From Thermoplasmatota archaeon (GTDB taxonomy: Archaea > Thermoplasmatota > Thermoplasmata > UBA10834): 64,000 nucleotides of DNA. A program made the translations under genes and the position numbers. The DNA is taken from assembly GCA_040751795.1 (NCBI GenBank), contig JBFMHR010000001.1, positions 32,001 through 96,000 of the forward strand, given 5' to 3'. Positions 3,494 to 18,800 of the stretch are shown one piece after another (within the stretch, counting starts at the first letter, position 1; each line of letters opens with the position of its first letter). Below the pieces are notes generated by a model. The model was not told the DNA's origin. It made no database searches and saw nothing but the letters and a program-made list of their open reading frames with translations.

Positions 3494-3815
3494 GCCAGGA
3501 GAAGGCGGATGGCCGACGGTAGGCCCGTTCTCAGAACGGGCCGGCTGAGGAAAGTCCCCTCTCCAAGAGAAGGTGGGCCGCCAGAGCGGCAGGGCGAGAG
3601 TCCTGGCAAGGGCACAGAAACGGCACAGCCTCGGGATAACGTGATGATTCCCCTGGGGATGAAGTCTCCCGAGGACATGGTGAAACGGCGACACCCCACC
3701 GGAGCAAGCTCAAACGGCCGAACGATCTCTCATCGACGGCGGGTAGAGTGCAATAGTCGGATGCCATCACCGTCGCAAGACGGGAACAGAAAGGGGCTTA
3801 TGTCCTTCACCTGGC
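3494..3815 (+). ncRNA. rnpB: Archaeal RNase P RNA (type A)
   Basis: P1 GCCAGGAGAAGG (3494-3505) pairs with CCTTCACCTGGC (3804-3815); conserved GAGGAAAGTCC (3547-3557), ACAGAAAC, TGAAACGG, GGAGCAAG and AACAGAAAGGGGCTTA; P3 GGCCCGTTC/GAACGGGCC; P8 and P9 hairpins present. Confidence 0.95.
3790..3815 (+). repeat. attL: 26-bp direct repeat AAAGGGGCTTATGTCCTTCACCTGGC (3' end of rnpB)
   Basis: Identical to 15070-15095. Confidence 0.95.
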
Positions 3816-3822
3816 TCTTATA

Positions 3823-3834
3823 CCTTTATAAAGG
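3823..3834. promoter_or_regulatory. Palindromic TATA-like element CCTTTATAAAGG just inside attL
   Basis: Perfect 12-bp palindrome containing TTTATAAA upstream of the first cargo gene. Confidence 0.4.
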
Positions 3835-3955
3835 GTATATGACAGAATGCACTTTCTGTCTCTCCCCGCATGGTCCTCCAGGGATTGCTCCGGCAATGGG
3901 AGGTCATACCCACCACAACAAAGTTTTACATGGCTTCTGAAGCATTTCCAAGTGG

Positions 3956-4588
3956 ATGCCGGGCAATCATGGAGAGATAAAGGCGGAGTTTCCGATATTC
4001 GCAGCCATGGATAAGGAAACCACCATGCTGAACCTATTCAGATTCGAAATGCGGAAGACTCGTCTGCAGTTCAAGAGAGTGAGCGATGACCTTGATGAAA
4101 GGAAAGCGACTTCAGGTTCAGCATTGACCAGAGAGGAAAATGCCAACAGTCAGGCGAAGCTCTTCGCTGACATTCACTTTCTACTAACATGTCTGAGTCG
4201 GCTCGGATCACTCTTCTACAGGATGAAAGGCTACTTTCCTGAGAACTCCAAACTGAGCGAAGTCGAGACTCGTGTCCGAAAGCGTCTTGATTTCTTCGGT
4301 GAAATCAGGAATGACTTGGAGCATGTGGAGGACAGGCCAGGCAAAGGAGTCAACATCCTTGGTAGCACCTTTGGCTCTGTCTTTCAATTCGATGACAAGC
4401 AGATAGATGTCGGCAGTCATCTCAGAGATGAGATCGAGACTTTCTTCACTGAAGTGGAATCGATATATGACCGAATATTAGTCGAGAGACGGAAATCGTT
4501 GGGACAGAAAACCGTACTGTATAGAACAGGCATAACAATACCCGGGAGCCCAGAAAATCCTCATTCATTCGATGAGACAAAGAATTAA
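3956..4588 (+). CDS. Putative HEPN-domain ribonuclease
   Basis: Helical-looking protein with R-x4-H motif (IRNDLEHV). Confidence 0.55.
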   Translation: MPGNHGEIKAEFPIFAAMDKETTMLNLFRFEMRKTRLQFKRVSDDLDERKATSGSALTREENANSQAKLFADIHFLLTCLSRLGSLFYRMKGYFPENSKLSEVETRVRKRLDFFGEIRNDLEHVEDRPGKGVNILGSTFGSVFQFDDKQIDVGSHLRDEIETFFTEVESIYDRILVERRKSLGQKTVLYRTGITIPGSPENPHSFDETKN

Positions 4589-4631
4589 GGCGTCATCGCC
4601 CCGATGGATGAGTAGCGTCTGATTTTCAGGC

Positions 4632-5384
4632 CTATCTGCTTCTGGAGATGATGCCTCTCTTCTCTAATTCATCCAGATACTCATCCATTCCAGGCAAGTG
4701 TCCCAACGCCTCTGCCCAATCAAGGACAGACTTCGAATTGAGCTCCAATATCATGTCCCCCGGTGTGAGGAATAGGACCCTTTCAGGATCTGTCATGAAT
4801 CCCAATTCGAGAAGGTCCGCTCTCACCTCATCTTCGTACACCCAATGGAGATCATCTTCGATTCTCCGTATCTTGCCGAGCTGTTGGCCTATCTCATGAA
4901 TATCGAGACCTGCATAGTATGGGCTGTTATCGTTCAGCATTCTCACAATGAGATCTCGCAGAGGCCCATTCTGGAAGACCCGTATCTTCTGATGCTTGGG
5001 AGAACGATATGCCCGTCTCATTGCATCTCTAAGCCATCTTACTGCCGAGTCAAATTCCTTCTTTCCTGCATTAGGCGACAGTAGCGGGCATGGAGCATCC
5101 GGTGTCGAGAATATCATCAGACAGAGGTTCATGGCTTCCTCCTTTGACATTCTTCTCAGAGGTTTGTGATGATTGGGGCCTCGTACCTTCTCATAAGTGA
5201 TATGTGGTGCGAATCCTTCGTCATCACTGACAATACTCAAGTGGATGCCAATCGTGCCATCCGTTGATTCATCTCCCAGGGCCTTTACGAACGACTCCAC
5301 ATCGCTACACCACCGGAAAAGTATCCTGAATCGGATCAAGCCGTTGTCCTGAATCAGCACCTTGCGGAGTCGCTTCTTGGACAC
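4632..5384 (-). CDS. Hypothetical protein (250 aa)
   Basis: Long ORF in the low-GC island; no recognised motif. Confidence 0.7.
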   Translation of the reverse strand: MSKKRLRKVLIQDNGLIRFRILFRWCSDVESFVKALGDESTDGTIGIHLSIVSDDEGFAPHITYEKVRGPNHHKPLRRMSKEEAMNLCLMIFSTPDAPCPLLSPNAGKKEFDSAVRWLRDAMRRAYRSPKHQKIRVFQNGPLRDLIVRMLNDNSPYYAGLDIHEIGQQLGKIRRIEDDLHWVYEDEVRADLLELGFMTDPERVLFLTPGDMILELNSKSVLDWAEALGHLPGMDEYLDELEKRGIISRSR

Positions 5385-5492
5385 CGAATCTCATCTCCGA
5401 ATCATGGCATTATACCTCGGCCCATGGTTTCACTCTTCCCTCATGGCAAGCATGTGAATCCGAAACGAAACCTCAGTGACAATGGGAGCCAT

Positions 5493-5651
5493 TCAGACAT
5501 GCCGCTTCTTCTCTTTGGAATCTGGAGCGTCTTTCTCAGAGGCGCCAAGTTGTACGGTAGTTGTCCCCACCTGCACTCCAGCTTTATCCCAGTCCCCAAG
5601 GTCCGGCTTATCCCGTCTTCTGCTCTTGTCTTCTCGCTTCTTCTCTGTCAT
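5493..5651 (-). CDS. Small charged peptide 2 (52 aa, DWD...VGT motif)
   Basis: MTEKKREDKSRRRDKPDLGDWDKAGVQVGTTTVQLG...; purine-rich RBS-like GAAGGGAG upstream. Confidence 0.5.
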   Translation of the reverse strand: MTEKKREDKSRRRDKPDLGDWDKAGVQVGTTTVQLGASEKDAPDSKEKKRHV

Positions 5652-5690
5652 GCGAGCACAACTCCCTTCAGTCACCATCCGAGTTCAGAC

Positions 5691-5822
5691 TCATTTGTCT
5701 GTCTTCTCCTTCTTGTGCTCCTTCTTGATGCTCTCAAGCGTGATTGTCCCCACATCCTTGCTGTCCCAATCTCTCATGTCTCGTTTCTGGCCTCTCCTCT
5801 TATTCTGATCCTCCTCACCCAT
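5691..5822 (-). CDS. Small charged peptide 1 (43 aa, DWD...VGT motif; below ORF-track cutoff)
   Basis: Hand translation MGEEDQNKRRGQKRDMRDWDSKDVGTITLESIKKEHKKEKTDK*; starts 4 nt after the upstream stop. Confidence 0.5.
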   Translation of the reverse strand: MGEEDQNKRRGQKRDMRDWDSKDVGTITLESIKKEHKKEKTDK

Positions 5823-5826
5823 TCAA

Positions 5827-7029
5827 TCATCCCCATATCCTGTCCAGATTCCATACCACAACTAGCACTAATCCAATGAGAAAGGCAATGAACATGCCCT
5901 TGGCAAACCAAGCCTTGAAGACATTCTGACGATGATTATGCAAGAAGGAGTCATAGAGTTTCCTCGATATGATCATCTCATAATCCCTTGGTTCCCCTTT
6001 GCGATAGATGTCAATAATCTCCCCTATGTCAGCTCCACCTTTGAACTCCCTCACGAAGAATGCAATTACACCGAGAAAGGCAGCGACAAGAAGTGAGATC
6101 ACCCCGAGAATTCCGAAGTGTCCAACATAGCTACCCGAATCTAGATCCGCAACAGGTTCTGTCAGGGATACGATAAGGCCGAGGGACACAAAAACAAATC
6201 CCAGCATGACGCCTGTCTTGGAATCCAGTGACTCACAGTTCCGACTCTCCTGGTCAAACTGCCTCTGTATTTCGCCTGTGATAATCGAAAAGTCGTTCTT
6301 GCTGGCAGCACTGTTAGACTCGTCCATACCCTTGACCTCCTGATGTGATGAGCCGCAATCAGCAATGGGCATCTGCTCAACGGAACCCTCCTCCCGATTT
6401 CTAGGAGAATCTAGACCCAATGTACTGACAAGAGAGCTCTTGAATTTCCCAGATAGATTCATTTGGCGCCAGAAAAGGAAGTAGTACACCGCTAGAGTTG
6501 TGATTGCCGCAATCACTATGATTACTCCCCTTACACTCGCATCAACATCTATGGATCCGATTGCGATACCGAGCACAATCACCCACATGAAGTAGAATCC
6601 GGAGATGAGAATGTGAAGCACTATGCTGCTGGGAATTCCTTTGACTTGAGGACGAAAAGCTGAGTCCCCTTCCTGCCAGACTGCACACTCCTCCCGCATA
6701 GTGACCGCTCTCTGAAGCCACAGTGCTCTGTGAATCCACTCTATCTCATATCTCTGTGCTCTAAGGATTATCAAGAACCAGGCAGTTGAGATGAACATGC
6801 CTAGAACAGATAGCGCCATGATTATCATTGCCCACTCGGGGTGGTTTAGTGCACTCACGGCTGCCACGATCAAGACACCATTTGTAGCTGAATGGAGTGC
6901 ATTCGTGGACCAAGTCGTTGAGTCTTGACCTCTCTCCATAGCGTTCAATTGAGATAGTTGGTCCATCCCAAATCTGCCTGTGCCACTAGTCTTATCATGT
7001 ATCTTCTCCACAGCAGGAGCCCCTGGCAT
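5827..7029 (-). CDS. Multi-pass membrane protein, apparently two joined TM modules
   Basis: Several hydrophobic helices; start at 7029 with GGAGGAGG SD; internal GGAGGT SD plus ATG at 6327 (MDESN...). Confidence 0.75.
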   Translation of the reverse strand: MPGAPAVEKIHDKTSGTGRFGMDQLSQLNAMERGQDSTTWSTNALHSATNGVLIVAAVSALNHPEWAMIIMALSVLGMFISTAWFLIILRAQRYEIEWIHRALWLQRAVTMREECAVWQEGDSAFRPQVKGIPSSIVLHILISGFYFMWVIVLGIAIGSIDVDASVRGVIIVIAAITTLAVYYFLFWRQMNLSGKFKSSLVSTLGLDSPRNREEGSVEQMPIADCGSSHQEVKGMDESNSAASKNDFSIITGEIQRQFDQESRNCESLDSKTGVMLGFVFVSLGLIVSLTEPVADLDSGSYVGHFGILGVISLLVAAFLGVIAFFVREFKGGADIGEIIDIYRKGEPRDYEMIISRKLYDSFLHNHRQNVFKAWFAKGMFIAFLIGLVLVVVWNLDRIWG

Positions 7030-7033
7030 CAGG

Positions 7034-7783
7034 TCAGCCTCCTCCGGCAAATCTAACGCTAAATGCTTCACAGATCGCCTTCACGAATGAATGATAGTGC
7101 AACGGGCTCCCCAGCTGGGGGGCTGGTGGCTCACTCACCAGCTTAGCCGAATGTCCCTTCACATTGTCGTAGTCAACGACAATGACTCCGACTGCGTCGA
7201 TCTCATTAGGTTTGCTAGGCGATGGGCCAGTCTTCGAGGCTCTAGGCAAATCCTCAAACAGCTTCACTGTCTCTGTGACTAGTCGTTCAATGTTTGCATG
7301 CATTGTTGTCTCTCCAGCTCTAAGAGGCGACATGAAGCTTGCAGACATGTTCACGACAACGAGCCCACCAACAATCGTCCGTGGATTTGACATGTGGAGG
7401 ATACTTGAGAAGGAATTCAGGTCCCTCTGTCTATTCCTTCTCGCTTTTCCGTGTTCCGTCATGATTGTCTTCGCATCTACTGCCACCCACAACTCATCGG
7501 GAGGAGCACAGATTGACTCCCCCTCGCCGCCAGGCACCCTTTGCGCATCTCGGGAAGTGGGTCCGATGGCAAGGTCAATGTTCCAGCCTAATGGCACCCC
7601 CAACCCAGGCGGTTGGTTCTGGTTATAGCAGATTCTCCCCTTTGCAGCCATTTCTGCAAAAGCAGGGCATGAAGCCATCATATCCTCCAAGAGGAGCTCG
7701 CAGAGTCGGTCGCCATGCTTCGATGATCTTGGGTGATAACCGTTTGACTCCAGATACCGCACGAATTCTCTGTCCGCCTTCAA
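7034..7783 (-). CDS. Putative type II restriction endonuclease (PD-(D/E)xK)
   Basis: NIDLAIG...VAVDAK motif; directly downstream of a DNA methyltransferase. Confidence 0.6.
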   Translation of the reverse strand: MKADREFVRYLESNGYHPRSSKHGDRLCELLLEDMMASCPAFAEMAAKGRICYNQNQPPGLGVPLGWNIDLAIGPTSRDAQRVPGGEGESICAPPDELWVAVDAKTIMTEHGKARRNRQRDLNSFSSILHMSNPRTIVGGLVVVNMSASFMSPLRAGETTMHANIERLVTETVKLFEDLPRASKTGPSPSKPNEIDAVGVIVVDYDNVKGHSAKLVSEPPAPQLGSPLHYHSFVKAICEAFSVRFAGGG

Positions 7784-7847
7784 CTCCAGACCACTCTGCG
7801 GATGTAAGGCCTAGGTAGTATGTTAATTTTCGGCAGAGAAGGATGTC

Positions 7848-8816
7848 CTATTTCTTGGTGATGGATAGCCTGCGGTTCATCTGCAGGGTGCCTATTTCAT
7901 TCCTGATGCGCTTCTCGGCCAGTCGAAGATAGTCGCTGTCAATCTCGAAGCCTACGCTATTCCTGCCAGTCTTCATTGCCGCGAGATTGGTTGTCCCTGT
8001 CCCCGTGAACGGATCGAGGACGGTGTCTCCCGCGAAACTGAACATGCGTATGAGCCTCAGAGGTATCTCAAGAGGAAACGGAGCCGGGTGTTTTGCAGTG
8101 CTCTCCCCCGGAACATCCGCCCATATCTGCTGGAACCAAACTCTATGTTTGTCAGCAGGGACTATGCTCAGCAATCGAGTCTTGGTATCAGGCTTGCGAT
8201 ACGATCCCGGCTTCCTCTCCATAAGTATGAATTCAACATCATTCTTCACCACACCCCCGGGCTCGTAGGGCTTACCGAGGAAGCCTGCCCCATTCCCTTC
8301 AGCCTCGAAGGCTGCATTCGCAATCTTGTACCAGAATATCGGAGCTAGATTGTCAAAACCTAGCTTCCTGCAGTGGCCTTGAATGTCGGCATGCAGTGGG
8401 AAAACTTGGTGTCGCCCATGCTTCCTGCGGCTCAGGCAGACGTCGCCGACGACAATAATCAACCTCCCGCCTTCCACGAGGACTCTGTGGCATTCTGCCC
8501 ACACCTTGTCGAGTTCCTTCAAGAAGTCCTCGTAATCGGTAACATAGCCAAGTTGTCCCTCGGTTATGTTGTACTTCTTCAGAGTCCAGTATGGGGGGGA
8601 GGTTACTACTAGGTGTACAGACTCATCCTCTACGCCTTTCAGATTCCTAGCATCGCCTTGAATAAGCCTATGTTCGGTCGGCAGACTAGCTATCTCCTCT
8701 TCAACGGCGGACAGGAAGGCAGAATCCTTACTCGCCTTAGGTATGAACATATCTGCCTGCCTGGGAGTCATGCTAGATGGCAGATTGAAAGACTTGGACA
8801 GTTCGTCCACAGACAT
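7848..8816 (-). CDS. Beta-class N4-C/N6-A DNA methyltransferase (start uncertain, ORF open to 8912)
   Basis: VTSPPYW (motif IV) precedes HPAPFP and DPFTGTGTT (motif I). Confidence 0.92.
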   Translation of the reverse strand: MSVDELSKSFNLPSSMTPRQADMFIPKASKDSAFLSAVEEEIASLPTEHRLIQGDARNLKGVEDESVHLVVTSPPYWTLKKYNITEGQLGYVTDYEDFLKELDKVWAECHRVLVEGGRLIIVVGDVCLSRRKHGRHQVFPLHADIQGHCRKLGFDNLAPIFWYKIANAAFEAEGNGAGFLGKPYEPGGVVKNDVEFILMERKPGSYRKPDTKTRLLSIVPADKHRVWFQQIWADVPGESTAKHPAPFPLEIPLRLIRMFSFAGDTVLDPFTGTGTTNLAAMKTGRNSVGFEIDSDYLRLAEKRIRNEIGTLQMNRRLSITKK

Positions 8817-8884
8817 TTCGATGGACCAATTGCCAGAGCACGTACTTGAACTGTTCGCAGAGGTCTCCGGAAATGCTCCTTTGC

Positions 8885-10039
8885 CTAGTAATAGCCCGGA
8901 GTCATGCGCCATGACGTGCTACCCTCCTTCATAGAACGGTGTTCGACAAGGGAGACGAGCCTTTCGAGCTTCTCATCAGAAATCTCCCCATTAAGGTACT
9001 TCAGGAGGATCATATCTCTGATGCGGTCTGATCTCTCAGGCCCCTCATCTATCGACTCGGCACCGAATCCTGCGTCCTCCTCGGGCAGGGCTCTCTGAGA
9101 CACGCTTGCGGACTCACCACCAAATGCCCTGTCATACGCTTGTCTCCTGCTCTTTTCACTCAAATGCGTGTATCTCTGCACATCGTCCAGACTCTTATGC
9201 CTTGACTGAGCCTGAATGAAGGATGCAGACAGCCCGCTCTCGGCCATATGTGTGATCATGCTGTGCCTGAAGATGTGGGGATGGACGTTCTTCTCGATTC
9301 CTGCTCGAAATGCCGTCTTCTTCACCATCATCCAGAGATTCCTCCTTGTCATTGGCCTCCTGCCCTCTGTGAGGAATACATAGTCTTCGTACCCGCTCTC
9401 TGGCGCTGGCCTACCCGCTTTAAGGTATCTTGCTACGGCTTGGACGGCCTCATCTGAGAGATTGACGAAGGAGTAATCCTTCCCCTTTCCCGCATGTACT
9501 CTGAGGCGCTTCTTGTCGAGATCAAGATTGGCGACCCTCACGCCGATGGCTTCACTAGCCCTTAGCCCACCATAGTACATCAAGCAGATGAGGGCATAAT
9601 CTCTCAACGAGGTGTCTCTCTCGGCCTGGAACCCATTCTCCCCGATCTTCGACCTCTTCGCTTCGTCAAGCACCCGCCTGACTTCTTCCTCTGTCAGAGG
9701 AACCTTCTCCTTCTCAACCTGCTTCGGGAGTTTCATCCTAAGGTCATGGCGCTCGATAACCTGCGATGTATAGCAGTTTACGGCTGCAAGCATGCTACAC
9801 ATGGTATTCTCACAGTATTTCTCTGCCAGGTGAGCCTTCCATGCCTGCATGTCGGCCTTCTGAAGCTCTAGAACGGGCTTTCCGATGAATTCTAGGCACA
9901 ATCTCAGACTCCGAGTGTACGAGGTCGCAGTAGCCTCTGTACGCTTCTCTGCCCTCAGAAATGCCTCGAATCGTTCAACCTGCTCCTGAACCTGCTGCTC
10001 AGTGTTCACACACCCTAGAGACTGCTCTCTCGTACTCAA
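8885..10039 (-). CDS. Tyrosine recombinase / integrase (XerC/D-like)
   Basis: GLRASE, GKGK, HIFRHS and H...QRY catalytic residues; N-terminal SAM-like region; GGTGA SD before TTG start. Confidence 0.95.
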   Translation of the reverse strand: MSTREQSLGCVNTEQQVQEQVERFEAFLRAEKRTEATATSYTRSLRLCLEFIGKPVLELQKADMQAWKAHLAEKYCENTMCSMLAAVNCYTSQVIERHDLRMKLPKQVEKEKVPLTEEEVRRVLDEAKRSKIGENGFQAERDTSLRDYALICLMYYGGLRASEAIGVRVANLDLDKKRLRVHAGKGKDYSFVNLSDEAVQAVARYLKAGRPAPESGYEDYVFLTEGRRPMTRRNLWMMVKKTAFRAGIEKNVHPHIFRHSMITHMAESGLSASFIQAQSRHKSLDDVQRYTHLSEKSRRQAYDRAFGGESASVSQRALPEEDAGFGAESIDEGPERSDRIRDMILLKYLNGEISDEKLERLVSLVEHRSMKEGSTSWRMTPGYY

Positions 10040-10154
10040 GCTGCTTCACCGAGCCTGAGAATGCAGTCCCTGACAATAAAGGTTTTCGAGGCAGGCAGGC
10101 AAAGCTCCCAAAAGCCCTTTGGTGAAGCAGCTATTGAGTACAATACCTGCCTGC
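10032..10154 (-). promoter_or_regulatory. Structured integrase leader (anti-SD/start hairpin plus interleaved second helix)
   Basis: GTACTCAAGCTGCTTCACC (10032-10050) complementary to GGTGAAGCAGC-TA-TTGAGTAC (10121-10141); GCAGGCAGG (10091-10099) complementary to CCTGCCTGC (10146-10154). Confidence 0.65.
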
Positions 10155-10202
10155 TATCCCGACGAGGCACCAAAGAGGAACAGGGTTGATATATGTTCCG
10201 AA

Positions 10203-10466
10203 TCAGGTGTCATCGCCCCCCTTCCCCTGGAACTTGCCCTCGATAGCCATTCGGACATGCCTTGCAGACAATCGGGCTTTACGCCTCTCCCCCAATTGAG
10301 CTCTAAGGAAGTTCTCCCTATCATGGATCGAAGACGCTCTGACAGCGATGGAGATTGCCTCATTCTCGAGGTGAGATTTGAGAGTTTCAACGGCCGCGCG
10401 CTCAATCTTCCGTTCTGGAGCCTTCTGTCCCAAGAGCATCCGGACGGACCGGAGGGAGATGGTCAT
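10203..10466 (-). CDS. Divergent histone-fold protein
   Basis: ISLRSVRMLL-APERKIERAAVETLKSHLENEAISIAVRAS...RKARLSARHVRMAI follows the archaeal HMf pattern (a1-L1-a2-L2-a3) with an insertion at the end of a2. Confidence 0.7.
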   Translation of the reverse strand: MTISLRSVRMLLGQKAPERKIERAAVETLKSHLENEAISIAVRASSIHDRENFLRAQLGERRKARLSARHVRMAIEGKFQGKGGDDT

Positions 10467-10753
10467 GAGCCCTCCTGCTGTTCAGCATCCAGTTGCGACT
10501 CCCGATTCTCGATCTTTGGGAGGAACCTCTCAAACTCCTTCCCTTTGCGCCACCGCCACTGCGTCTGTTCGTTTATCAACCCTCGAACCCGGGAAAGCCT
10601 GTAGTATGAATCTGCGGTTCGCCGATCAATGCCCAACCCCGCATCAACAACCACCTCTTGCCAGTCATTTCGACCATAGTAACGACTGTCATCACAGCAG
10701 AGGTGGATTGTCTTCGCAAGGGCCTCCAGTTTCTTGGCTTCATTTTTGACCAT
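10463..10753 (-). CDS. Small putative wHTH DNA-binding protein
   Basis: GIDRRTADSYYRLSRVRGLI resembles a recognition helix plus wing; ATGA overlap with the histone gene. Confidence 0.55.
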   Translation of the reverse strand: MVKNEAKKLEALAKTIHLCCDDSRYYGRNDWQEVVVDAGLGIDRRTADSYYRLSRVRGLINEQTQWRWRKGKEFERFLPKIENRESQLDAEQQEGS

Positions 10754-10778
10754 AGGCCACCCCCGCCGCATGCTTATG

Positions 10779-10902
10779 TGTGTGTGAGTGTGCAACTAAG
10801 AGAGAAGGACCTCTCTCAAGACAATACATATTATACGACATCACAGATAGAAATCTGTTCAGAGAAGGGATTCTCTCTAGGGCGTGCACACACTCACACA
10901 CA
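10779..10902. repeat. Nested inverted-repeat array (origin/operator-like)
   Basis: TGTGTGTGAGTGTG (10779-10792) / CACACTCACACACA (10889-10902) enclosing two AGAGA..TCTCT hairpins, ACAGAT/ATCTGT and an AT-rich core. Confidence 0.8.
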
Positions 10903-10982
10903 ATCCTGATAACACCCCTAGGAGCCCTTCCATTGTCTCCGATCCTGACTTCCTTCGAGTACATCCCATCCCTCCTAGTGTA

Positions 10983-11354
10983 TCACTTCGTCGTCTTGAC
11001 CTCCCGAAACAATCTCGCTGGGAGCTGGTCAATTGGGTCAACCGTTATGCTAGGAAACTCAGAAATCACCGACTCCCTGCTTATCAATGGCTCATGTTGC
11101 TCCTTATACCAGCAACTCTCGCAGAGTCCTCGGTGGGCAAGGGCAATCAATTGGGAAGGTCCTCTTTGGCCTGATGGGAGTCTTGGGGTCTTGTCAGTAC
11201 CTGCTAATGTAAACCCCGCTCGTTCTCTCGCCAGAAGCTCAAGAACCACAAATCTGAGGAGACCTGATAGACTCTCATACCCTCGAGAGGCCTGTATTTG
11301 CCCGAGCGCTGCTGCATCTTCATCGTCTAGTCTGAAAGAGATAGACCTACTCAC
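10983..11354 (-). CDS. Ribbon-helix-helix (CopG-like) protein
   Basis: N-terminal SISFRLDDED...GYESLSGLLRFVV RHH pattern. Confidence 0.7.
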   Translation of the reverse strand: MSRSISFRLDDEDAAALGQIQASRGYESLSGLLRFVVLELLARERAGFTLAGTDKTPRLPSGQRGPSQLIALAHRGLCESCWYKEQHEPLISRESVISEFPSITVDPIDQLPARLFREVKTTK

Positions 11355-11849
11355 CTGACTCCTTCCTGCCCTCAGCTCTACCCAGAGTCCTTCAGAGCCG
11401 CAGCAGGTTCAAGGAGGTTCAACATCGGAGGAGAGAATTCCGATAGACTCTAGGTTATCTGCCAAATCGACTACCGAGATTAAGGTCTTTTCGCTACCGG
11501 GGTTCTGCCGAGGATCTTCAAGACTCTGTATTGAAGAGTCTGTATTACGCGTGCATTCAAGCACGTATACGGAAATCTGCCGACAAATGCTCTTGCCGAC
11601 AATCGAAAAGGCCAGGATTATCGGCGGCGGACAGGGGATACCTTCAAAACCCTATGAAGAGAGAGAGAAGAGAGAGACATAGTCTCTCTCCACGAGCGTG
11701 CGAGGGCTGCCGAGGATTGACTTCCGACTTTCAGCTGGCAGTCGGAAGCAATCACGGTGATTCCGCCTGTCCATGGGCGAGACCTCATTCAAGCCAAATC
11801 ACGGGAAACAGAAAGAGAGATATGCGAAGACATCTGTACTCGGCAATGG

Positions 11850-12413
11850 ATGGAATCTGGGGGACCTGCGCCGAATCAGGACGATTGGCGCGAGTATCAG
11901 GCTCTTGAGGCGAGAATCCAGAATGATTCTAGGGTAGCATATGCGATTCTGGCAGCTTCATTGACTTCATCGTTAGCCTTAGCAGGTCTGCTACTGGTCT
12001 ATATCGATCCTGGGCAAGACCTAATCAGATTTCTGATCATCGCAGCCCTTGCACTCTTCATACTTAAATTCGGCACGGTGATTCAGAATCGATTCAACGA
12101 CACAGCAAGTATCAGAATCGCCAGGGCAGTGCAGCTGGAACGGAATCTGAGAATACACAGTTTCAGATCTTTTCCGCCCTGGTACGAATTTCCCGGAGGC
12201 GACTACTTCAAGATTCTTGGAGAATACGCCAGTAATTCCCGATCCGATGGCACTCCATCCTCTGATGCGTATTTCACATATTTGGGCCAAAGAGAATACG
12301 AACGTATAATCCGCGGATTGCGAATCCGTATTTACGTCTCATGGTTCGGATATGCAGTGATCTTAGCTCTGATTGCATCCGGAATTATTCTTGCTCTGGT
12401 GAACACTCAGTAG
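11850..12413 (+). CDS. Membrane protein (about 3 TM)
   Basis: Hydrophobic segments; IARAVQLE resembles IHRALWLQ of the 5827-7029 N-terminal module; start uncertain (ORF open from 11757). Confidence 0.7.
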   Translation: MESGGPAPNQDDWREYQALEARIQNDSRVAYAILAASLTSSLALAGLLLVYIDPGQDLIRFLIIAALALFILKFGTVIQNRFNDTASIRIARAVQLERNLRIHSFRSFPPWYEFPGGDYFKILGEYASNSRSDGTPSSDAYFTYLGQREYERIIRGLRIRIYVSWFGYAVILALIASGIILALVNTQ

Positions 12414-12526
12414 CAGTGACAAGAGAACCCGGCTGCGGAAACATGATAGGGATTAGTCGATGAAGGCTATAGGGGTAGAGGAAAGCCCTTAAGCCATCGC
12501 AAATGATTTGGATATTGGGAAAGGAA

Positions 12527-13051
12527 ATGGCAGATAAGTTCTTGGTTTTCGTCAGCCACTCCGCCAAAGATAAGCATCAACTCGAATTGATAAGAGGCGC
12601 AATCAGAGGGACTGGTGCGCGACCATATGTTGCCGAGGAGAATGTGACGCCAGGTGCGAAACTGTCAACAAAGATACGCAACAAGATTGAAGAATGTGAT
12701 GTATTCCTGCTAATCCTTACGGAGAACAGTGCAGCATCTGCCTATGTAAATCAAGAGATTGGATACGCGCTCGGCCTTGAGAAATTCGTGCTGCCTATAG
12801 TGATCGGGGATACTTGTCCCCAGAACCTCTGCTCCGATATTGAGTACATACGAATCGATCCGGAACGCCCTTCTTCATCTATTCGCACTGTCCGAGCAAT
12901 CATAAAAGCCAAGAAGAACGAAACTGAACTTGAGCAACTTGTCAAGATTGGCGCCCTCACCCTAGGGACCATAGCTTGGCTCAAGTACGGCCCTCAGATT
13001 AAGGAAACCGCATCTAGGTGGTGGCAGAATTTGAACAGACCATTACCATGA
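12527..13051 (+). CDS. TIR-domain protein with C-terminal hydrophobic helix
   Basis: VFVSHSAKD, CDVFLLILTENS, SAYVNQEIGYA (catalytic Glu present). Confidence 0.9.
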   Translation: MADKFLVFVSHSAKDKHQLELIRGAIRGTGARPYVAEENVTPGAKLSTKIRNKIEECDVFLLILTENSAASAYVNQEIGYALGLEKFVLPIVIGDTCPQNLCSDIEYIRIDPERPSSSIRTVRAIIKAKKNETELEQLVKIGALTLGTIAWLKYGPQIKETASRWWQNLNRPLP

Positions 13052-13116
13052 GAAGAAGCGATAGTGGCGAAGGGAAGCTCTTAAATCGTGCCTGGGGATT
13101 TCATAGGGTGATAGAC

Positions 13117-14292
13117 ATGAATGATTCCTCGACCCAAATGCTCATTCCTCTTCTCGCTGGAGGTGAAGATACCCTAGTCGAATTCAAATCTTTCCTTCCC
13201 AAGAACGAAGAAACTAAGCACAAAGTGGCCGAGGCCGCAACCGAGCTTGCCAACGCTGCAGCTCTTTGCGGGCATCCTAAGGCATTCCTGCTTCTCGGAG
13301 TCACAGATGATGGCAAGGTCGTTGGAGTGAAATGCCAAGAACGATACAAGAAGGAATTCAGAGAACTGATATCTGCCAAGTCTAATCCCCATGTGAGGGT
13401 TCTAGAGATTCATGAGATTGGAACCACGAGTCTATCGACCGACATCAAGTCTGAACCATGCGGCGAAGCAGTGTACGTCCTGGAAATTGCGCCTGCCTTG
13501 GATGGACCGATTCGATACTATAGGTCTAAAGATTCCAACGGAGTTCTATTGACAAGGGATGGCCCTCGAAAGCGGGACATGACCAACGAGGAATTGCGGC
13601 GGCTGTCCAGCGGGCCTGCCAGAACTCCGAAACTTTCACTCAGACTTCTGAACGATGAGGAACATGAAGTTGAATGCCTGGTCTTGAGACCGAAATTCTT
13701 GGTGAAGAAGAAGACCGAAGAGCCAAAGCCATACACTCCCACTCCTCAGCAGACAGCCTGGCTTGAGCAACTGAAGCGGCAGCCAAACATGCAACAGGTG
13801 ATGATACAGCAGGCATTGAGCACAAAAAGACTACTTGAGATGACAGAAACATGGAAGCCGTTTCTGACACAGGTTGAGAGAATCCCAGCTCCGAACACAT
13901 TTCCCACTCACTTCGCATTGTCGAATACCGGATCTGCACCAGCCGAGGATGTAAGGGTCACGATGAAGTTTCCTGAATGTTTTATGATTGAGGAGAAATC
14001 GGAGTATGAGCCACAGTCATATGGCATCCTTGCACATGTTCCATCAGTCACACCACCATTCAGCGGCGTATGGAAGAAAGACAGAGATGATCGGAATTGT
14101 GTGACTGCTGGCATTCGTGTCCAGAAACTAAGTAATGATGTCACAATTACTAGATTCGACCCAATTTTCGTGACTGTACCCAATGCCGAGAGAGAATACA
14201 GCATCGAAATCCGGATCACTGCCGACTATCAAGAACCTGTGCACCAGACTCTCACAATGATTATCAAGCCAATCATCGAAGAAGTCTCATAG
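13117..14292 (+). CDS. AlbA_2/Schlafen-domain protein with C-terminal beta-sandwich (start uncertain)
   Basis: GEDTLVEFKS, ELANA, LLLGVTDDGKVVGV; NTGSAPAEDVRV Ig-like motif. Confidence 0.85.
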   Translation: MNDSSTQMLIPLLAGGEDTLVEFKSFLPKNEETKHKVAEAATELANAAALCGHPKAFLLLGVTDDGKVVGVKCQERYKKEFRELISAKSNPHVRVLEIHEIGTTSLSTDIKSEPCGEAVYVLEIAPALDGPIRYYRSKDSNGVLLTRDGPRKRDMTNEELRRLSSGPARTPKLSLRLLNDEEHEVECLVLRPKFLVKKKTEEPKPYTPTPQQTAWLEQLKRQPNMQQVMIQQALSTKRLLEMTETWKPFLTQVERIPAPNTFPTHFALSNTGSAPAEDVRVTMKFPECFMIEEKSEYEPQSYGILAHVPSVTPPFSGVWKKDRDDRNCVTAGIRVQKLSNDVTITRFDPIFVTVPNAEREYSIEIRITADYQEPVHQTLTMIIKPIIEEVS

Positions 14293-14308
14293 GGGCGGAA
14301 GGGCATCC

Positions 14309-14992
14309 ATGAAAAGGATGAATGGACTTACAAGAAGGACGACAATCAACTACATTGAGATCGAGGTCTTGAGTGAGCGGCTATTTGACGAGGATACTCT
14401 CAAATCCTTTGCCCGTATTGCAGCTCAAATTGCCTCGAATGCAGGGACTGAAGAGGGGCGGCCGAGCAGTCGGTTCTGCATCGAATCCGTCAGAGAACCC
14501 ATCGCATTGATTGATGACATCATTGGAGGAGTCGGCATCAACCAGCTACTTGTTCCAACCGCTGATACCTACACGGGCCACTACCCAGTGAACGAAAGGC
14601 AGATTCACAGACCACTCCAGTATGCCCTCGTTGACCTGCTCACGAGCATCAGGTCGAGAGATACAATCCGGTATGGTTGCCAACACATCGAGGGCATCTT
14701 GAAGACCATGTTTGAGAATGAAATCCACGGAATTCATCGCAAACCTCTAGGACAAATCGTCAAAGACCTGAAGAAAAGGAGCATCCTGGGGAATGATCTT
14801 ATTCAACAACTTGAGAACCTCGTCACTATCATGAACATTGCCAAGCATGAACATGGCAATGATGCCATTAGAATACCAGACCCATTGCGCACAGTAGAAT
14901 CTCAAGTCTTCAACACCCACGAAGCAATCTCAATGTACTTCATATGCAGGAAGCTCGGAGTACTACTCCTAGCTGAATCTAGCACACCGTAA
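14309..14992 (+). CDS. Hypothetical protein, HEPN/Abi-like C-terminus
   Basis: HIEGILK...PLGQIV...MNIAKH pattern (canonical Arg absent). Confidence 0.5.
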   Translation: MKRMNGLTRRTTINYIEIEVLSERLFDEDTLKSFARIAAQIASNAGTEEGRPSSRFCIESVREPIALIDDIIGGVGINQLLVPTADTYTGHYPVNERQIHRPLQYALVDLLTSIRSRDTIRYGCQHIEGILKTMFENEIHGIHRKPLGQIVKDLKKRSILGNDLIQQLENLVTIMNIAKHEHGNDAIRIPDPLRTVESQVFNTHEAISMYFICRKLGVLLLAESSTP

Positions 14993-15069
14993 CGCTGATT
15001 TGCATCATTGAACGCAGAATATCAGCGTCTGCATGTATGTGCTCGATATGATCCAGACTGCAGGGTTTC

Positions 15070-15095
15070 AAAGGGGCTTATGTCCTTCACCTGGC
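15070..15095 (+). repeat. attR: duplicated rnpB 3' end
   Basis: Identical 26-mer to 3790-3815. Confidence 0.95.
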
Positions 15096-15241
15096 ACTTG
15101 CGCCCAGTGGAACCGGGGCAACACATACAGCTCTACGTTCCCAGCCCGTTACTCCGCGTTCCTCGTCATTCTTGACGGAGTATCACCCTGTCCGCCGAAA
15201 GGCTATTGAAGGACGCACTCATCCTAACATCGGTGTCTGCA

Positions 15242-15595
15242 ATGGGTGAAGATGTGCTTATCGTGCTGAACGATGCGCCTTACGGAACGGAGAAGGCCTA
15301 CAACGGACTGCGACTGGCCATAGCCTTGCAGGCGAGACAAAGCAACGTCCGGCTGTTCCTCATGGCGGACGCCGTCTCCGCAGGCATCCCGAACCAGGAG
15401 ACCCCGCCGGGGTACTACAACGTCAGCGAGATGCTCGGAAGGGTCCTCGCGAAGGGCGGGAAGGTGGCGGCCTGCGGGAGCTGCATGAAGGCGAGGGGGC
15501 TCAGGGTGGAAGGGCTCATCAAGGGCATCGAGCAGGGCTCGATGGCCCTGCTCTGCGAATGGACGCAGGAGTGCGGTAAGATCCACTCCTTCTGA
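15242..15595 (+). CDS. DsrE/YchN-family protein
   Basis: NDAPYGTEKAYNGLRLA, FLMADAV, CGSCMKARG. Confidence 0.88.
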   Translation: MGEDVLIVLNDAPYGTEKAYNGLRLAIALQARQSNVRLFLMADAVSAGIPNQETPPGYYNVSEMLGRVLAKGGKVAACGSCMKARGLRVEGLIKGIEQGSMALLCEWTQECGKIHSF

Positions 15596-15862
15596 CAGGC
15601 GGATACAGACTCGTTCCGGATCCATGTCGCCCGCGAGGTCCCTGCGATTCCGGAAGCATGGTGACACTCCCTCTGCTCATGGTCGAACCACGGAAAAGGC
15701 TTAATGAGGCCCCGCCTTTACAAGAGCAGGTGGTAGGAAATGGGTCGGATGACTGAGCTGGCTGCGCCACGGGAAGTCAGGGGCTCTGAGGCGATCATGG
15801 TAGCCCGCAATTACGACCGGAGGACCAGGGAATCACTCTCGCGGGCATCGACACTGCGCCGG

Positions 15863-18800
15863 ATGCCGCCGCCCCGACTCGCTGCGGCCGTCGCCGCGGC
15901 CTTTGTATCCGTTGCCCTCGCGACCATGGGCCTCTTGGCCTGCGTTGTCCCTTCGAGCCCGGATGCCCCCGCTGGAATAGCGGCCATATCGAACGAGACG
16001 CTGGACGGCGAGAACGATGCGGGGCAGTTCACATCCATTGCCATCGGCGATGATGATGACGTGCACATCAGCTACATCTATGAGACCACGGCCGATCTCA
16101 GATACGCGACCAACGACGGAGGTGCGTGGAGCACTGAGACGGTCGATTCGGTCACCGACGCTTCCGGCTACACTTCGATGGCGATCGACTCTGAAGGCAA
16201 GGTCCACATCGCCTACTTCGACTTCACCAACATGCTGTTGATGTACGCAACGGACACGGGGGGCTCCTGGACAACCGACATGGTCGACGGCAGCGGCGAC
16301 GTCTCCGGATTCATCTCCCTAGCTGTCGACCTCAACGACAAGGTGCACATCAGCTACTACGACTCCGCCGATGACGACCTCATGTACGCCACGAACGCAG
16401 GCGGCTCCTGGGACATCAGTGCGATTGACAGCGGCGACAACGTCGGAGGCCACAGCTCGATAACCGTCGACTCCCATGGCGGCATACACATAAGCTACTG
16501 TGACTACACGGACACCGCCCTCAAGTATGCCACCAATGCGACCGGGTCGTGGACCACAAGCACGATTGACAGCGAAGGGACCGTCGGGTACTTCACATCC
16601 ATCGCTGTCGATTCGTCCGATCACGTCCACATAAGCTACCATGACGACACGAACGGTGCCGTCAAGTATGCCACGAACTCGGGGGGTTCATGGGCATGCG
16701 AGGCGGTCGACGGCGAATCGGGGATTGGCGACATCACATCCATCTCGATCGACGCTGAAGACCATGTGCACATCAGCTACTGCGACCGGATCGACGTGGA
16801 CCTCATGTACGCCACCAACGCATACGGCACCTGGTCCATTCAGACGGTCGACAGCACAGGTGATGTCGGAAGCTACTCATCCATAGCGGTCAACTCCACG
16901 GGCGTGGCCCACATCAGCTATTACGATTCGACGAACCACGACCTCAAGTACGCCACGGTCGCCCCATGCGTCATCCATGGCTGGGTGAACGACTCGGAGA
17001 CGATGCAGGGGATCGAGGGCGCCCAGGTCATGGCGTTCCTGACAGACTTCGAGTTCTCTCCATATCTCGACCCCATAATGGCGCAGACCACGGCAAACGA
17101 GACCGGATACTACGAACTGACCCTGCCCGGCGGCGCCACTGCGCTCATGTGCGGAGCCTCCGGACACTATAGTTACACCGTTGAGTTCAACACGACGGAG
17201 CTGACCGAATACCGGCTCGACATCATTCTGGACCCCGAGCCCACTGTGCCGACCGCGGACATGAGCCTGGACCCGGTCTCTGACGTGTCGTCCCACAACC
17301 CGCTCACGGTCAGTGTGGAGTGCGAGGACTTCAACATCTATATGGTCTTCATCTACATCGGCAGGATCCAAGAGCTGTCTGGTGACTACGTCGACTTCCA
17401 TCCCGTCGCTGGCGCTGCGGCGGTGCCCATGTGGGATACTGGCACGGACGACTTCCTCTATACCTACGAGAACGACGTCTTCGAGGGGACATACACGTGG
17501 ACGGCGAGCGCGGAGGCAGGCTATCTGACGAACGACACCGCATCGGAGTATATCGACATATGGTCGCACAGGTCCATCGATGGCGTCGAATCCTACGGTA
17601 TCGCGGGATACTACTCGAACGAGACGCTCGAGGGGGAGGTCGGCAGGGCATGGTTCGACCTCCTGACGGGGGAGTACCTCGGCTTCGAGTTCGGGGAGTC
17701 ACTGCTCCACGAGCCCTCCACCCTGCCACCCGCCCCCGCCGACGACCACACGGGCATGCTCACCCCGTTCTCATTGACCTACAGGATAGCCACGGACTGG
17801 ATGGGGACGGGAAACCCCCCGCCGGCGGACTTCCTCAGCTACGAAGAACAGCTCTTCGAGGAGAGACCCACCATGGGGCTCACGCTCCGGATGACCTACA
17901 TCGCCCCGAGCGGGGACTACGTCGCGCTCATGATAGTCATGGACGAGGCCGCCAACTACAACGGCTCCGTGGAGCTCTTCTCCGTCGACACGGATGCGCC
18001 CTCGGCGGACTGCGGGTCCGACCGGACGGTCTCATGCGGGGACGAGGTCACCCTGGACGGGAGCGCGTCATCCGATAATGTCGGCATAGCGTCCTATCAG
18101 TGGGACCTGGTCGATGGCGAGGCCGTGACGCTGACCGGCGCCGAGGCTGCGCACACCTTCGAGCTTCCGGGGACGTATGCGGTCACGCTCACCGTCTACG
18201 ACGGTGCGGGCAACAGCGGCACCGACACGATGACCGTGACCGTCGTTGACGATGAGGCCCCGGTCGCCGACGCGGGCGAGGCCCCGACGGACGTGGAGGC
18301 GGGCGAGACCGTCACATTCAACGCCTCGGGCTCCTCCGACAATGTCGGGATAGTCAACTTCACATGGGAGCTCACGGACGCCGCGGACGTCGTCCTGTAC
18401 GGGGAATCGGCGGACTACGCGTTCAGCGACGCCGGGGAGTTCCTCGTGACCCTCACGGTCAGGGACGCGGCGGGGAACAGCGACACCGACACGCTCACCG
18501 TCTCGGTGAGCGAGGCGCCTGTCAACGACCCGCCGGTGGCAGATGCCGGGGACGACGAGACCATCGGCCCCGGCTCCGTGTACACGTTCGACGGGACAGG
18601 CTCTTCGGCCGATGTCGTGAACCACACCTGGACATTCGCCTACGATGGGGAGGAGAGGGAGCTCTACGGGGAGACGCCGTCATGGACGTTCGACATCGCC
18701 GGAGAGTACACGGTGACGCTCACCGTGACGGACGACCTCGGGGCCACCGATGCCGACACCGTCCTGATCACGGTCGAGGAGGAAGGGTCCCAACTGGCCC

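Follow-up and report, generated by a model that had tools for sequence, protein, structure and literature searches.

What does a protein with a histone fold do immediately upstream of the integrase of a mobile element? The question is raised by the gene of an 87-amino-acid (aa) basic protein in a 64,000-nucleotide (nt) stretch of DNA from a Thermoplasmatota archaeon (contig JBFMHR010000001.1, positions 32,001 to 96,000, forward strand), referred to below as the window. In an earlier note, made from the sequence alone, the gene was described as an element-encoded divergent histone next to an integrase gene, and three roles were proposed for its product: an architectural or directionality factor of the integrase, packaging of the excised circle, and modulation of host chromatin. 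As set out below, the histone-fold gene belongs invariably to the integration module of a family of small archaeal elements that insert at the 3' end of the RNase P RNA gene. The protein itself could assist the integrase as an architectural or directionality factor acting on DNA, a counterpart of IHF and Xis supplied by the element; this reading is put forward tentatively, with belief and doubt nearly in balance. The two genes concerned are the following:

8885..10039, minus strand: tyrosine integrase of 384 aa, with SAM-like core-binding and catalytic domains, a Pro-rich linker and a conserved C-terminal helix.
10203..10466, minus strand: open reading frame (ORF) with an ATG start for the 87-aa basic histone-fold protein, a member of a family with profile matches to histones (mean predicted local distance difference test score, pLDDT, of the AlphaFold2 (AF2) model 83).

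The ORF at 10203-10466 is a real gene on which purifying selection acts. Its length, basic nature and position before the integrase gene had been correctly described: it lies on the minus strand with an ATG start, and the integrase gene (PF00589, 3.9e-38) begins 163 nt downstream on the same strand. The calculated isoelectric point (pI) is 10.8, with 18 Lys and Arg residues versus 11 Asp and Glu residues, and values of 9.3–11.1 are found in 17 of 17 family members. The ratio of nonsynonymous to synonymous substitution rates (dN/dS) is 0.05–0.16 in eight gene pairs (Nei–Gojobori method, 79 codons), the ninth pair being saturated; these values together with the conservation of the protein rule out a chance ORF. 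A word-indexed search of 5.8 billion proteins returned seven proteins, itself included, at E <=0.01 (55–83% identity), and an exhaustive search of 1.84 billion cluster representatives returned 14, itself included, at E <=0.001. Scanning of metagenome contigs for relatives of the histone yielded 26 loci, which were collected by the histone peptide pattern alone. At 90% identity the 27 full-length histones group into 20 clusters, and at 70% into 10.

Fused forms of the histone were not found among proteins of 196–2000 aa, which is weak evidence by the grading of the tool itself. PHROGs and PADLOC contain no match for the 87-aa protein, and no viral relatives were revealed by two scans of viral contigs or by a tblastn search of 50,697 phage records; a fold search of BFVD with the protein model gave no row at E <=0.001. 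In the ESM Atlas, some members of the nearest cluster are labelled as viruses. Among sequencing runs searched for expression, no RNA run was listed, and three DNA runs contained 0.05–0.12 of the sequence words.

Assignment of the protein to histones comes from the family and not from the single sequence. With the 87-aa protein alone, Pfam returns only MIT_C at 0.077 and no PF00808 row at E up to 1, and phmmer finds no chain in the PDB at E up to 10; the histone identity follows therefore from matches of the family profile. H2B chains of the PDB are matched by the family profiles with E-values from 8.8e-6 to 1e-3. With a profile of 20 family sequences, the matches are H2B-containing chains from 8.8e-6 upwards, all of them at profile positions 8–48, which correspond to alpha1-L1-alpha2, and archaeal HPhA is matched at 0.019. 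A profile of 45 rows matches single H2B chains at 4.4e-4 (23.2 bits), HPhA at 9.5e-4 (22.1 bits) and the non-canonical archaeal histone HmvA at 0.0076 (profile positions 5–61). PF00808 is matched by 11 of 20 family members at E up to 10, the best E-value being 1.2e-5. The profile-profile alignment (hhalign) of the family (45 rows) with 17 canonical archaeal histones, taken from loci of the host's phylum, gives a probability of 97.4% and an E-value of 1.3e-11 for this one template, and family residues 1–76 are superimposed on histone residues 1–65. In the controls (20 column shuffles and one reversal of the family alignment) the probability does not exceed 1.2%, and the scores are 6–15 versus 58–60 for the real alignment. 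The likeness to archaeal histones, noticed by eye over alpha1-L1-alpha2, thus extends over the whole fold.

The AF2 model of the protein, built with seven close sequences, consists of alpha1 (residues 5–15), a long alpha2 (23–57), L2 (58–67) and alpha3 (68–75), i.e., the helix-loop-long helix-loop-helix order for which a structure prediction had been recommended, with a mean pLDDT of 83 and a predicted template modelling score (pTM) of 0.61. Residues 76–87 form a non-helical, disordered tail, with pLDDT below 50 at 85–87. Foldseek comparison of the model with the PDB gives a best E-value of 2.1 and none at or below 0.001; the weak rows are mostly histone-fold chains. VIA-align finds 19 chains with Z >=5, many of them with a histone fold; the best Z of 6.0 (TAF; root mean square deviation 1.7 over 45 residues) is below the level that the tool treats as telling, and Z below 8 may reflect only a common helical arrangement. 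Template modelling (TM) scores of the ESM Atlas model versus archaeal histone clusters are 0.68–0.74, and the nearest cluster by features (0.96) comprises 99 members, 29% of them with PF00808. The histone fold can be regarded as established by the sequence profile above all, with structural evidence that agrees and is weaker.

At the same time, the family departs from ordinary histones in several respects. It has the order of fold elements, the similar size and the basic nature of archaeal HMf/HPhA histones (PF00808), together with the hhalign probability given above; however, 10 residues (F53-R62 in the hhalign alignment) are inserted at the junction of alpha2 and L2, and alpha2 comprises 35 residues in the AF2 model. 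An extension at this place had been noticed and holds, although its length was estimated as about 12 residues. According to the part of the histone survey PMC13260811 that was consulted, the Asp of alpha3 invariably stands seven residues after the Arg of L2 (RKT motif), forming the R-D clamp. This clamp is absent here: the L2 Arg is replaced by K63 and the alpha3 Asp by H70, as aligned by hhalign. The replacement of Asp by His had also been read correctly from the sequence. Position 70 is His in 38 of 45 family rows and Asp in one (the rows used for these and the following residue counts were not de-duplicated). The position of the minor-groove Arg in L1 (position 20) is not conserved, with K in 19, P in 13, S in 5 and R in 3 of the 45 rows. 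Conservation peaks instead in and around the family-specific insertion and in L2-alpha3, where the most constant residues are N52 (45 of 45), E51 and G59 (44 each), R55 and P17 (43 each), R61 (41) and K63 (40), and the basic residues K63, R65 and K/R69 are conserved in L2-alpha3. Unlike HMf/HPhA histones, the protein obtains no PF00808 score when taken alone, is carried by a mobile element and is always encoded beside an integrase gene; nor is its gene a core chromosomal gene of the lineage.

A special relationship with eukaryotic H2A, suggested by eye for the L2-alpha3 segment, did not survive comparison. The family sequence K-x-R-L-S-P-K-H-I-K-M-A-I does resemble by eye the H2A stretches of H2B-H2A fusion chains, but when the 26 C-terminal columns (23 rows) are used as a profile, the PDB yields no histone at E up to 10, the sole match being a glycosyltransferase. 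The H2A halves of the fusion chains obtain only 4.8–5.7 bits with i-E-values of 130–250 (HMMER). The best PDB sequence matches, over alpha1-L1-alpha2 and including a Pro in L1, are those to H2B, and H2B and archaeal HPhA score alike against the family profile (23.2 and 22.1 bits, respectively). In contrast to H2A and H2B, the protein has no tails and no docking domain, and there is no sign of a gene for a heterodimer partner. The comparisons thus give no evidence that the histone-fold family has a special eukaryotic affinity.

The two genes are strictly linked. In each of the 28 related loci (L001, L003 and the 26 metagenome loci) the histone gene is followed, on its own strand, by the gene of a homologous integrase, so that the co-occurrence proposed as a check was found throughout. 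The linked integrases are 38–64% identical to that of the window in the metagenome loci, 27% in L003 and 79% in L001. In 26 loci the genes are separated by −4 to 373 nt, and in the other two by 662 and 1079 nt; in L003, the most distant locus, which belongs to a genome of the host's class, the genes overlap by 4 nt. The gene upstream of the histone varies (D5-type helicase, MCM-like protein, Prim-Pol or a 96-aa ORF), while the histone-integrase pair persists. Relatives of the integrase were found in six of 151 genomes of the host's class at E <=1e-30, the window's own counted. The other five are 28–36% identical and only one of them (G034) is accompanied by the histone; they are uninformative on integrases without a histone. 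Close integrases were not found in the 150 further genomes of the class, the best being 36% identical.

The pair belongs to a mobile element inserted at the end of a gene of RNase P RNA, which is delimited in the window by the following features:

3497..3812, plus strand: archaeal RNase P RNA gene, the integration target (RF00373, 182.4 bits, E 3.1e-53).
3790..3819, plus strand: attL, the left copy of a 30-nt direct repeat, inside the 3' end of the RNase P RNA gene.
15070..15099, plus strand: attR, the right copy of the repeat; the element-side arm on its left resembles the arm that follows the integrase gene in L005, L006 and L008.

The 30-nt repeats (29 of 30 positions identical) bound an 11.3-kb island of low GC content, which is 0.48–0.54 at 4001–16000 versus 0.60–0.67 around it. 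The 26-nt core of the repeat occurs exactly twice in the window, with zero occurrences expected by chance, and is present without changes in eight loci, mostly 74–142 nt after the integrase stop codon. The same core is located at the 3' end of the RNase P RNA gene in L006 and L008, and both share with the window the order CheA-CheC(-CheD), RNase P RNA, element; ORFs of the window upstream of the RNase P RNA gene were named CheB, CheA, CheC and CheD-like by likeness to these two loci. In L006 the site at the RNase P RNA gene covers 3741-4060 and the second core is at 9596-9621, the cores being 5,561 nt apart. L008, with the site at 2146-2467 and further copies at 9796-9826 and 15871-15901, contains three att copies in all and therefore two elements in tandem. 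The elements of L006 and L008 comprise 5.6–7.4 kb. The 3' end of the RNase P RNA gene is thus a recurrent integration site of this element family. No tRNA targets were found in the window or in 23 loci. No capsid or terminase families were seen among the window proteins, nor capsid genes in the relatives, which, judged by their gene content, are small integrative plasmid-like elements.

The histone family is present in two of 41 related genomes, the window's own counted, with none in 11 genomes of the genus and none in 24 of the host's family. This distribution, together with the location of the gene on an island that att repeats delimit at the RNase P RNA gene, shows its mobility. The description of the gene as an element-encoded divergent histone is supported, the fold resting on profile and model.

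The integrase is a tyrosine recombinase, matching PF00589 as given above, PF02899 (SAM-like N-terminal) at 1.4e-5 and the integrase family phrog_1 at 2.3e-42. Residues R160, K185, H255, R258, H281 and Y290 are invariant in an alignment of 21 integrase sequences and correspond to the catalytic Arg/Lys/His/Arg/His/Tyr set of these enzymes. Pfam reveals no extra N-terminal arm-binding domain. Beyond the catalytic Tyr, the C-terminal 80 residues (window positions 8885-9130) contain a Pro-rich linker, a conserved helix L-x-KYLDGEI-x-D-x-KLE-x-LL and a terminal GY motif.

The conserved C-terminal helix may be a candidate docking site for the histone. Complex prediction with two histone chains and the integrase as the scored partner, based on a histone alignment of 45 rows and an integrase alignment of 21 rows, gave scores of 0.57, 0.57 and 0.56, versus 0.00, 0.00 and 0.28 in the controls. 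Contacts agree between the runs by at least 49%, and pLDDT of the partner is at least 71. The mark of the method is reached by 58 of 80 solved complexes and by two of 110 mismatched pairs. These predictions lend weak support to a contact between a histone dimer and the integrase.

The spacer between the two genes contains a fold-back stem that covers the start of the integrase gene. Its features are as follows:

10121..10132, minus strand: 5' arm of the stem (anti-ribosome-site arm) in the histone-integrase spacer, part of a 12-nt perfect inverted repeat.
10039..10050, minus strand: 3' arm of the stem, covering a GGTGA motif similar to a ribosome-binding site and the spacer as far as the first base of the TTG start codon of the integrase gene (10037-10039).
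10074..10086, minus strand: A-rich/TTTAT box formed by conserved columns in the loop of the stem, a putative archaeal promoter of the integrase gene.

The stem region extends over 10033-10138 (minus strand), and the fold of the 191-nt spacer has a z-score of −4.23. The box precedes GGTGAA by about 24 nt. Examination of 27 close loci, comprising 25 metagenome loci, L001 and the window, revealed the stem in each of them (L008 was not counted separately, its module values being the same as those of L007), with arms of about 10 to 16 base pairs (bp), mostly 12–16, and anchor motifs 69–88 nt apart. It is absent in L003, where the histone and integrase genes overlap. The covariation score is 0.427 for 25 aligned sequences versus 0.125 in 500 shuffles, none of which reaches 0.427, and falls to 0.057–0.123 when the partner is slid by 1–3 columns. 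Six variable pairs beside an invariant core include up to four pair types with 0–4 unpaired cells, and RNAalifold independently predicts the same 12-bp stem. Such covariation argues for base pairing rather than protein recognition, although the pairing could in principle take place in DNA.

The stem probably shields the integrase gene from translation off read-through transcripts. Transcripts reading through from the histone gene would be unable to translate the integrase, and a promoter in the loop would provide an integrase mRNA lacking the 5' arm. This arrangement resembles IS10, where translation of the transposase is limited by fold-back inhibition: read-through transcripts alone contain an upstream arm, which base-pairs with the ribosome site and the start of the recombinase gene. 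In contrast to IS10, the setting is archaeal, the enzyme is an integrase and not a transposase, and the promoter in the loop is putative.

How could the histone-fold protein serve the integrase? According to the reading preferred here, a histone-type dimer would form, would bind and bend DNA of the element at the att arms or in the spacer before the integrase gene, and would cooperate with the tyrosine integrase, possibly by direct contact, with an effect on recombination. As in the class of accessory factors, the protein is small and basic and stands beside the integrase it would serve (28 of 28 loci, pI 9.3–11.1). Among the three roles proposed earlier, the one linked to the integrase fits best, given this linkage and the predicted contact (0.57 versus 0.28 for the best control), and the other two fit less well. 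A more specific version, in which a dimer or tetramer wraps the att-arm DNA, docks through the family-specific insertion on the C-terminal helix of the integrase and sets the efficiency or direction of integration, is doubtful in this detail.

The nearest functional parallels are the accessory proteins of other tyrosine integrases. Like lambda Xis and IHF, the directionality and architectural factors described in PMC8371274, the protein is small and basic, is encoded directly upstream of the integrase on the same strand, and would be expected to bend arm DNA; unlike them it has a histone fold and neither a winged helix nor an HU/IHF fold, and its activity is a prediction. In the archaeal virus SNJ2, according to the part of PMC5861418 consulted, two small proteins co-transcribed with the integrase are needed for efficient integration; Orf2 is a prefoldin-like coiled coil and Orf3 a winged helix-turn-helix (wHTH) protein of the MarR type, and they do not occur in all SNJ2-type systems. 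Passages of a review of archaeal tyrosine recombinases (PMC8371274) name Orf2 and Orf3 as modulators. The likeness consists in small proteins forming one unit with an archaeal tyrosine integrase, as far as these sources describe it; here, however, the fold is that of a histone and the protein is present in 28 of 28 loci.

Several points weigh against a partnership with the integrase. The canonical DNA-binding signature of histones is not kept, and DNA binding, if any, may be un-histone-like. The loci were gathered through the histone and not through the integrase, so that linkage was measured only in the direction from histone to integrase. Because the elements are small (5.6–7.4 kb in L006 and L008), the conserved gene order may in part reflect common descent. 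Within the window, in contrast to L006 and L008, the histone-integrase pair stands in inverted orientation relative to the att core and is separated from each copy by 5 kb; the island looks like a rearranged member of the family with gained cargo. Only 7 of 80 solved complexes, and both of the passing mismatches, reach the mark of the complex prediction with scores of 0.60 or less; predicted contacts in this band are wrong in the majority of cases, except where the contact was likely from the outset. Since the stem covers the ribosome site and the start of the integrase gene, the histone and the integrase are probably not made from one mRNA, while xis and int of lambda come from one pL mRNA; the stem counts somewhat against the operon logic of lambda xis-int and for separate control of the two genes. 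Finally, according to the reviewed passages of PMC8371274, every archaeal integrase that has been characterised does without a directionality factor.

Other explanations account for part of these observations. The protein could be a regulator of integrase expression, a dimer or tetramer of which binds the ~70-bp spacer and switches the candidate promoter without any role in recombination. The histone gene ends 36–75 nt before the conserved spacer with the A-rich/TTTAT box, the integrase gene is apparently insulated from read-through by the stem and would need its own controlled promoter, and NF-Y, one of the histone-fold factors that act at promoters, is among the weak fold matches. Nevertheless, an operator was not identified, histone folds usually show little sequence preference in DNA binding, the weakly supported complex points to a protein contact, and L003, with its overlapping genes, has no spacer to bind; such a regulator is unlikely. 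Conversely, the same predicted contact could be the whole function, if a TAF-like pair docked on the C-terminal helix of the integrase as a protein-protein adaptor and stabilised or inhibited the enzyme without a DNA role. This is consistent with the TAF chains being the best fold matches by Z (5.9–6.0), with the unconserved canonical DNA-contact residues and with the conserved integrase helix after the Pro-rich linker, together with the weakly supported complex. However, Z values below 8 may reflect only a common arrangement of helices, and the high pI of 17 of 17 members and the conserved K63, R65 and K/R69 fit nucleic-acid binding; a pure adaptor is improbable.

The two remaining alternatives place the function away from the integrase. 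As an accessory of chromatin or replication, the protein could compact the excised circle or its origin, being the last gene of a replication operon that adjoins the integrase gene only because the backbone is compact. The stop codon of the upstream gene overlaps the histone start by 4 nt in the window, L001, L004 and L006. Several relatives carry replication-type genes upstream of the histone gene and on its strand, namely D5_N/DUF5906 helicases in L017, L018, L020 and L024, an MCM-like ATPase in L016 and, further upstream, a Prim-Pol protein in L023. The integrase start is shielded from that upstream transcript, and the host genome has no PF00808 histone. On the other hand, the pair is kept where a replication gene is absent (window, L001, L003) and the upstream gene varies, a circle of 5–11 kb is hardly in need of packaging, and no capsid genes were seen; a role of this kind is quite unlikely. 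The element could also bring its histone as a modulator of chromatin into a host relying on HU and Alba. The host genome (2.05 Mb, 92.8% complete) encodes an HU-type protein (55.8 bits) and Alba (71.4 bits), at C2:604-864 and C34:220522-220704, and gave no match in the PF00808 search, while PF00808 occurs in 17 of 101 sampled genomes of the phylum. But this search missed the element's own protein too, so that divergent host histones could likewise escape it, and both the strict coupling with the integrase and the divergent DNA-contact residues would be left unexplained. Modulation of host chromatin is highly improbable.

Histones are organisers of chromatin and, in eukaryotes, parts of transcription factors. 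The pairing of the present family with an integrase suggests that DNA integration is assisted or controlled by a relative of histones, for which no such role has been described. Through a histone-fold family that strictly accompanies an integrase, site-specific recombination would join the uses of the fold. If the protein is indeed a partner of the integrase, archaeal integrative elements would gain a counterpart of IHF and Xis. In the more specific version with wrapped att-arm DNA and docking on the integrase, it would be the first histone-based accessory factor of recombination and the first element-encoded directionality system of its kind in archaea. Since the family is small, the att site is defined and the host lineage is seemingly without ordinary histones, the idea is directly testable.

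Known minor histones of prokaryotes provide no close precedent in the texts covered. The protein resembles the prokaryotic histones of Schwab et al. 2024 (PMC11390915) in forming a minor, divergent histone-fold family; the comparison is with the descriptions in the main text, the table of 17 categories being in the supplement. According to these descriptions, alpha3-truncated histones have an alpha3 of 3–4 residues and an alpha2 shortened by 4–5, in contrast to 8 residues of alpha3 and a longer alpha2 (35 residues) here. The coiled-coil and Methanococcales bridging histones carry a long C-terminal helix or a tetramerisation domain after the fold (same main text); assignment to this type is ruled out by the lack of a C-terminal helix in the AF2 model. 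The survey began from the InterPro histone-fold superfamily, which may miss the present family. Within the text covered of the histone surveys (PMC11390915, PMC13260811, the 2026 Asgard preprint and PMC13681535; their supplements, with possible members, are outside this scope), the word 'integrase' is absent, and 'recombinase', looked for in two of them, refers only to a yeast Cre reporter. The passages of PMC8371274 contain neither 'histone' nor 'RNase P'. A full-text search for an archaeal pairing of a histone fold with an integrase in mobile elements found no related literature, judged by title and abstract, and literature searches on integration sites in RNase P RNA and on archaeal directionality factors gave, on the same basis, nothing on the present module.

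Besides the integration module, the island of the window carries what looks like defence genes. A type II DNA methylase (PADLOC MTase_II, 9.3e-65) lies beside a 249-aa ORF at 7034-8912, and a ThsB-like TIR protein (2.4e-12) overlaps a Schlafen/AlbA_2 protein (1.6e-11) at 12503-14292. A weak ribbon-helix-helix ORF (0.027) and several ORFs without matches are also present.

Immediately upstream of the histone gene lie a further ORF and a repeat region:

10463..10795, minus strand: upstream ORF, 96 aa from its second ATG, whose stop codon overlaps the histone start (ATGA).
10777..10902, no strand assigned: 18-nt TG/CA-rich inverted repeat around 90 nt with two 20-nt direct repeats, a candidate control region.

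The ATGA overlap reported in the earlier note is read directly in the sequence, whereas the description of the upstream gene as wHTH-like finds no backing: the 96-aa ORF matches no Pfam family at E <=0.001 (DUF1492 at 0.065), and its AF2 model is poor, with a pLDDT of 65.5 and only helices. Its family comprises three proteins, itself included, and among the loci it is common only to the window and L001. The upstream genes of L004 and L006 likewise have no family match. The inverted repeat, located upstream of the 96-aa gene, is 89% complementary with a perfect inner 14 nt; L001 has a TG-rich stretch at the matching place.

L001 itself is a 4.9-kb contig of a metagenome-assembled genome labelled Thorarchaeota, and its module of 96-aa ORF, histone and integrase is 79% identical to that of the window. 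This likeness would be due either to transfer across phyla or to a binning error; the host of the window seems to belong to a different, histone-poor lineage. In two other loci, a protein with a Topo VI-A/Spo11 Toprim domain is encoded upstream of the histone gene (L014, 6415-7497, 4.2e-6; L019, 4267-5409, 3.6e-5).

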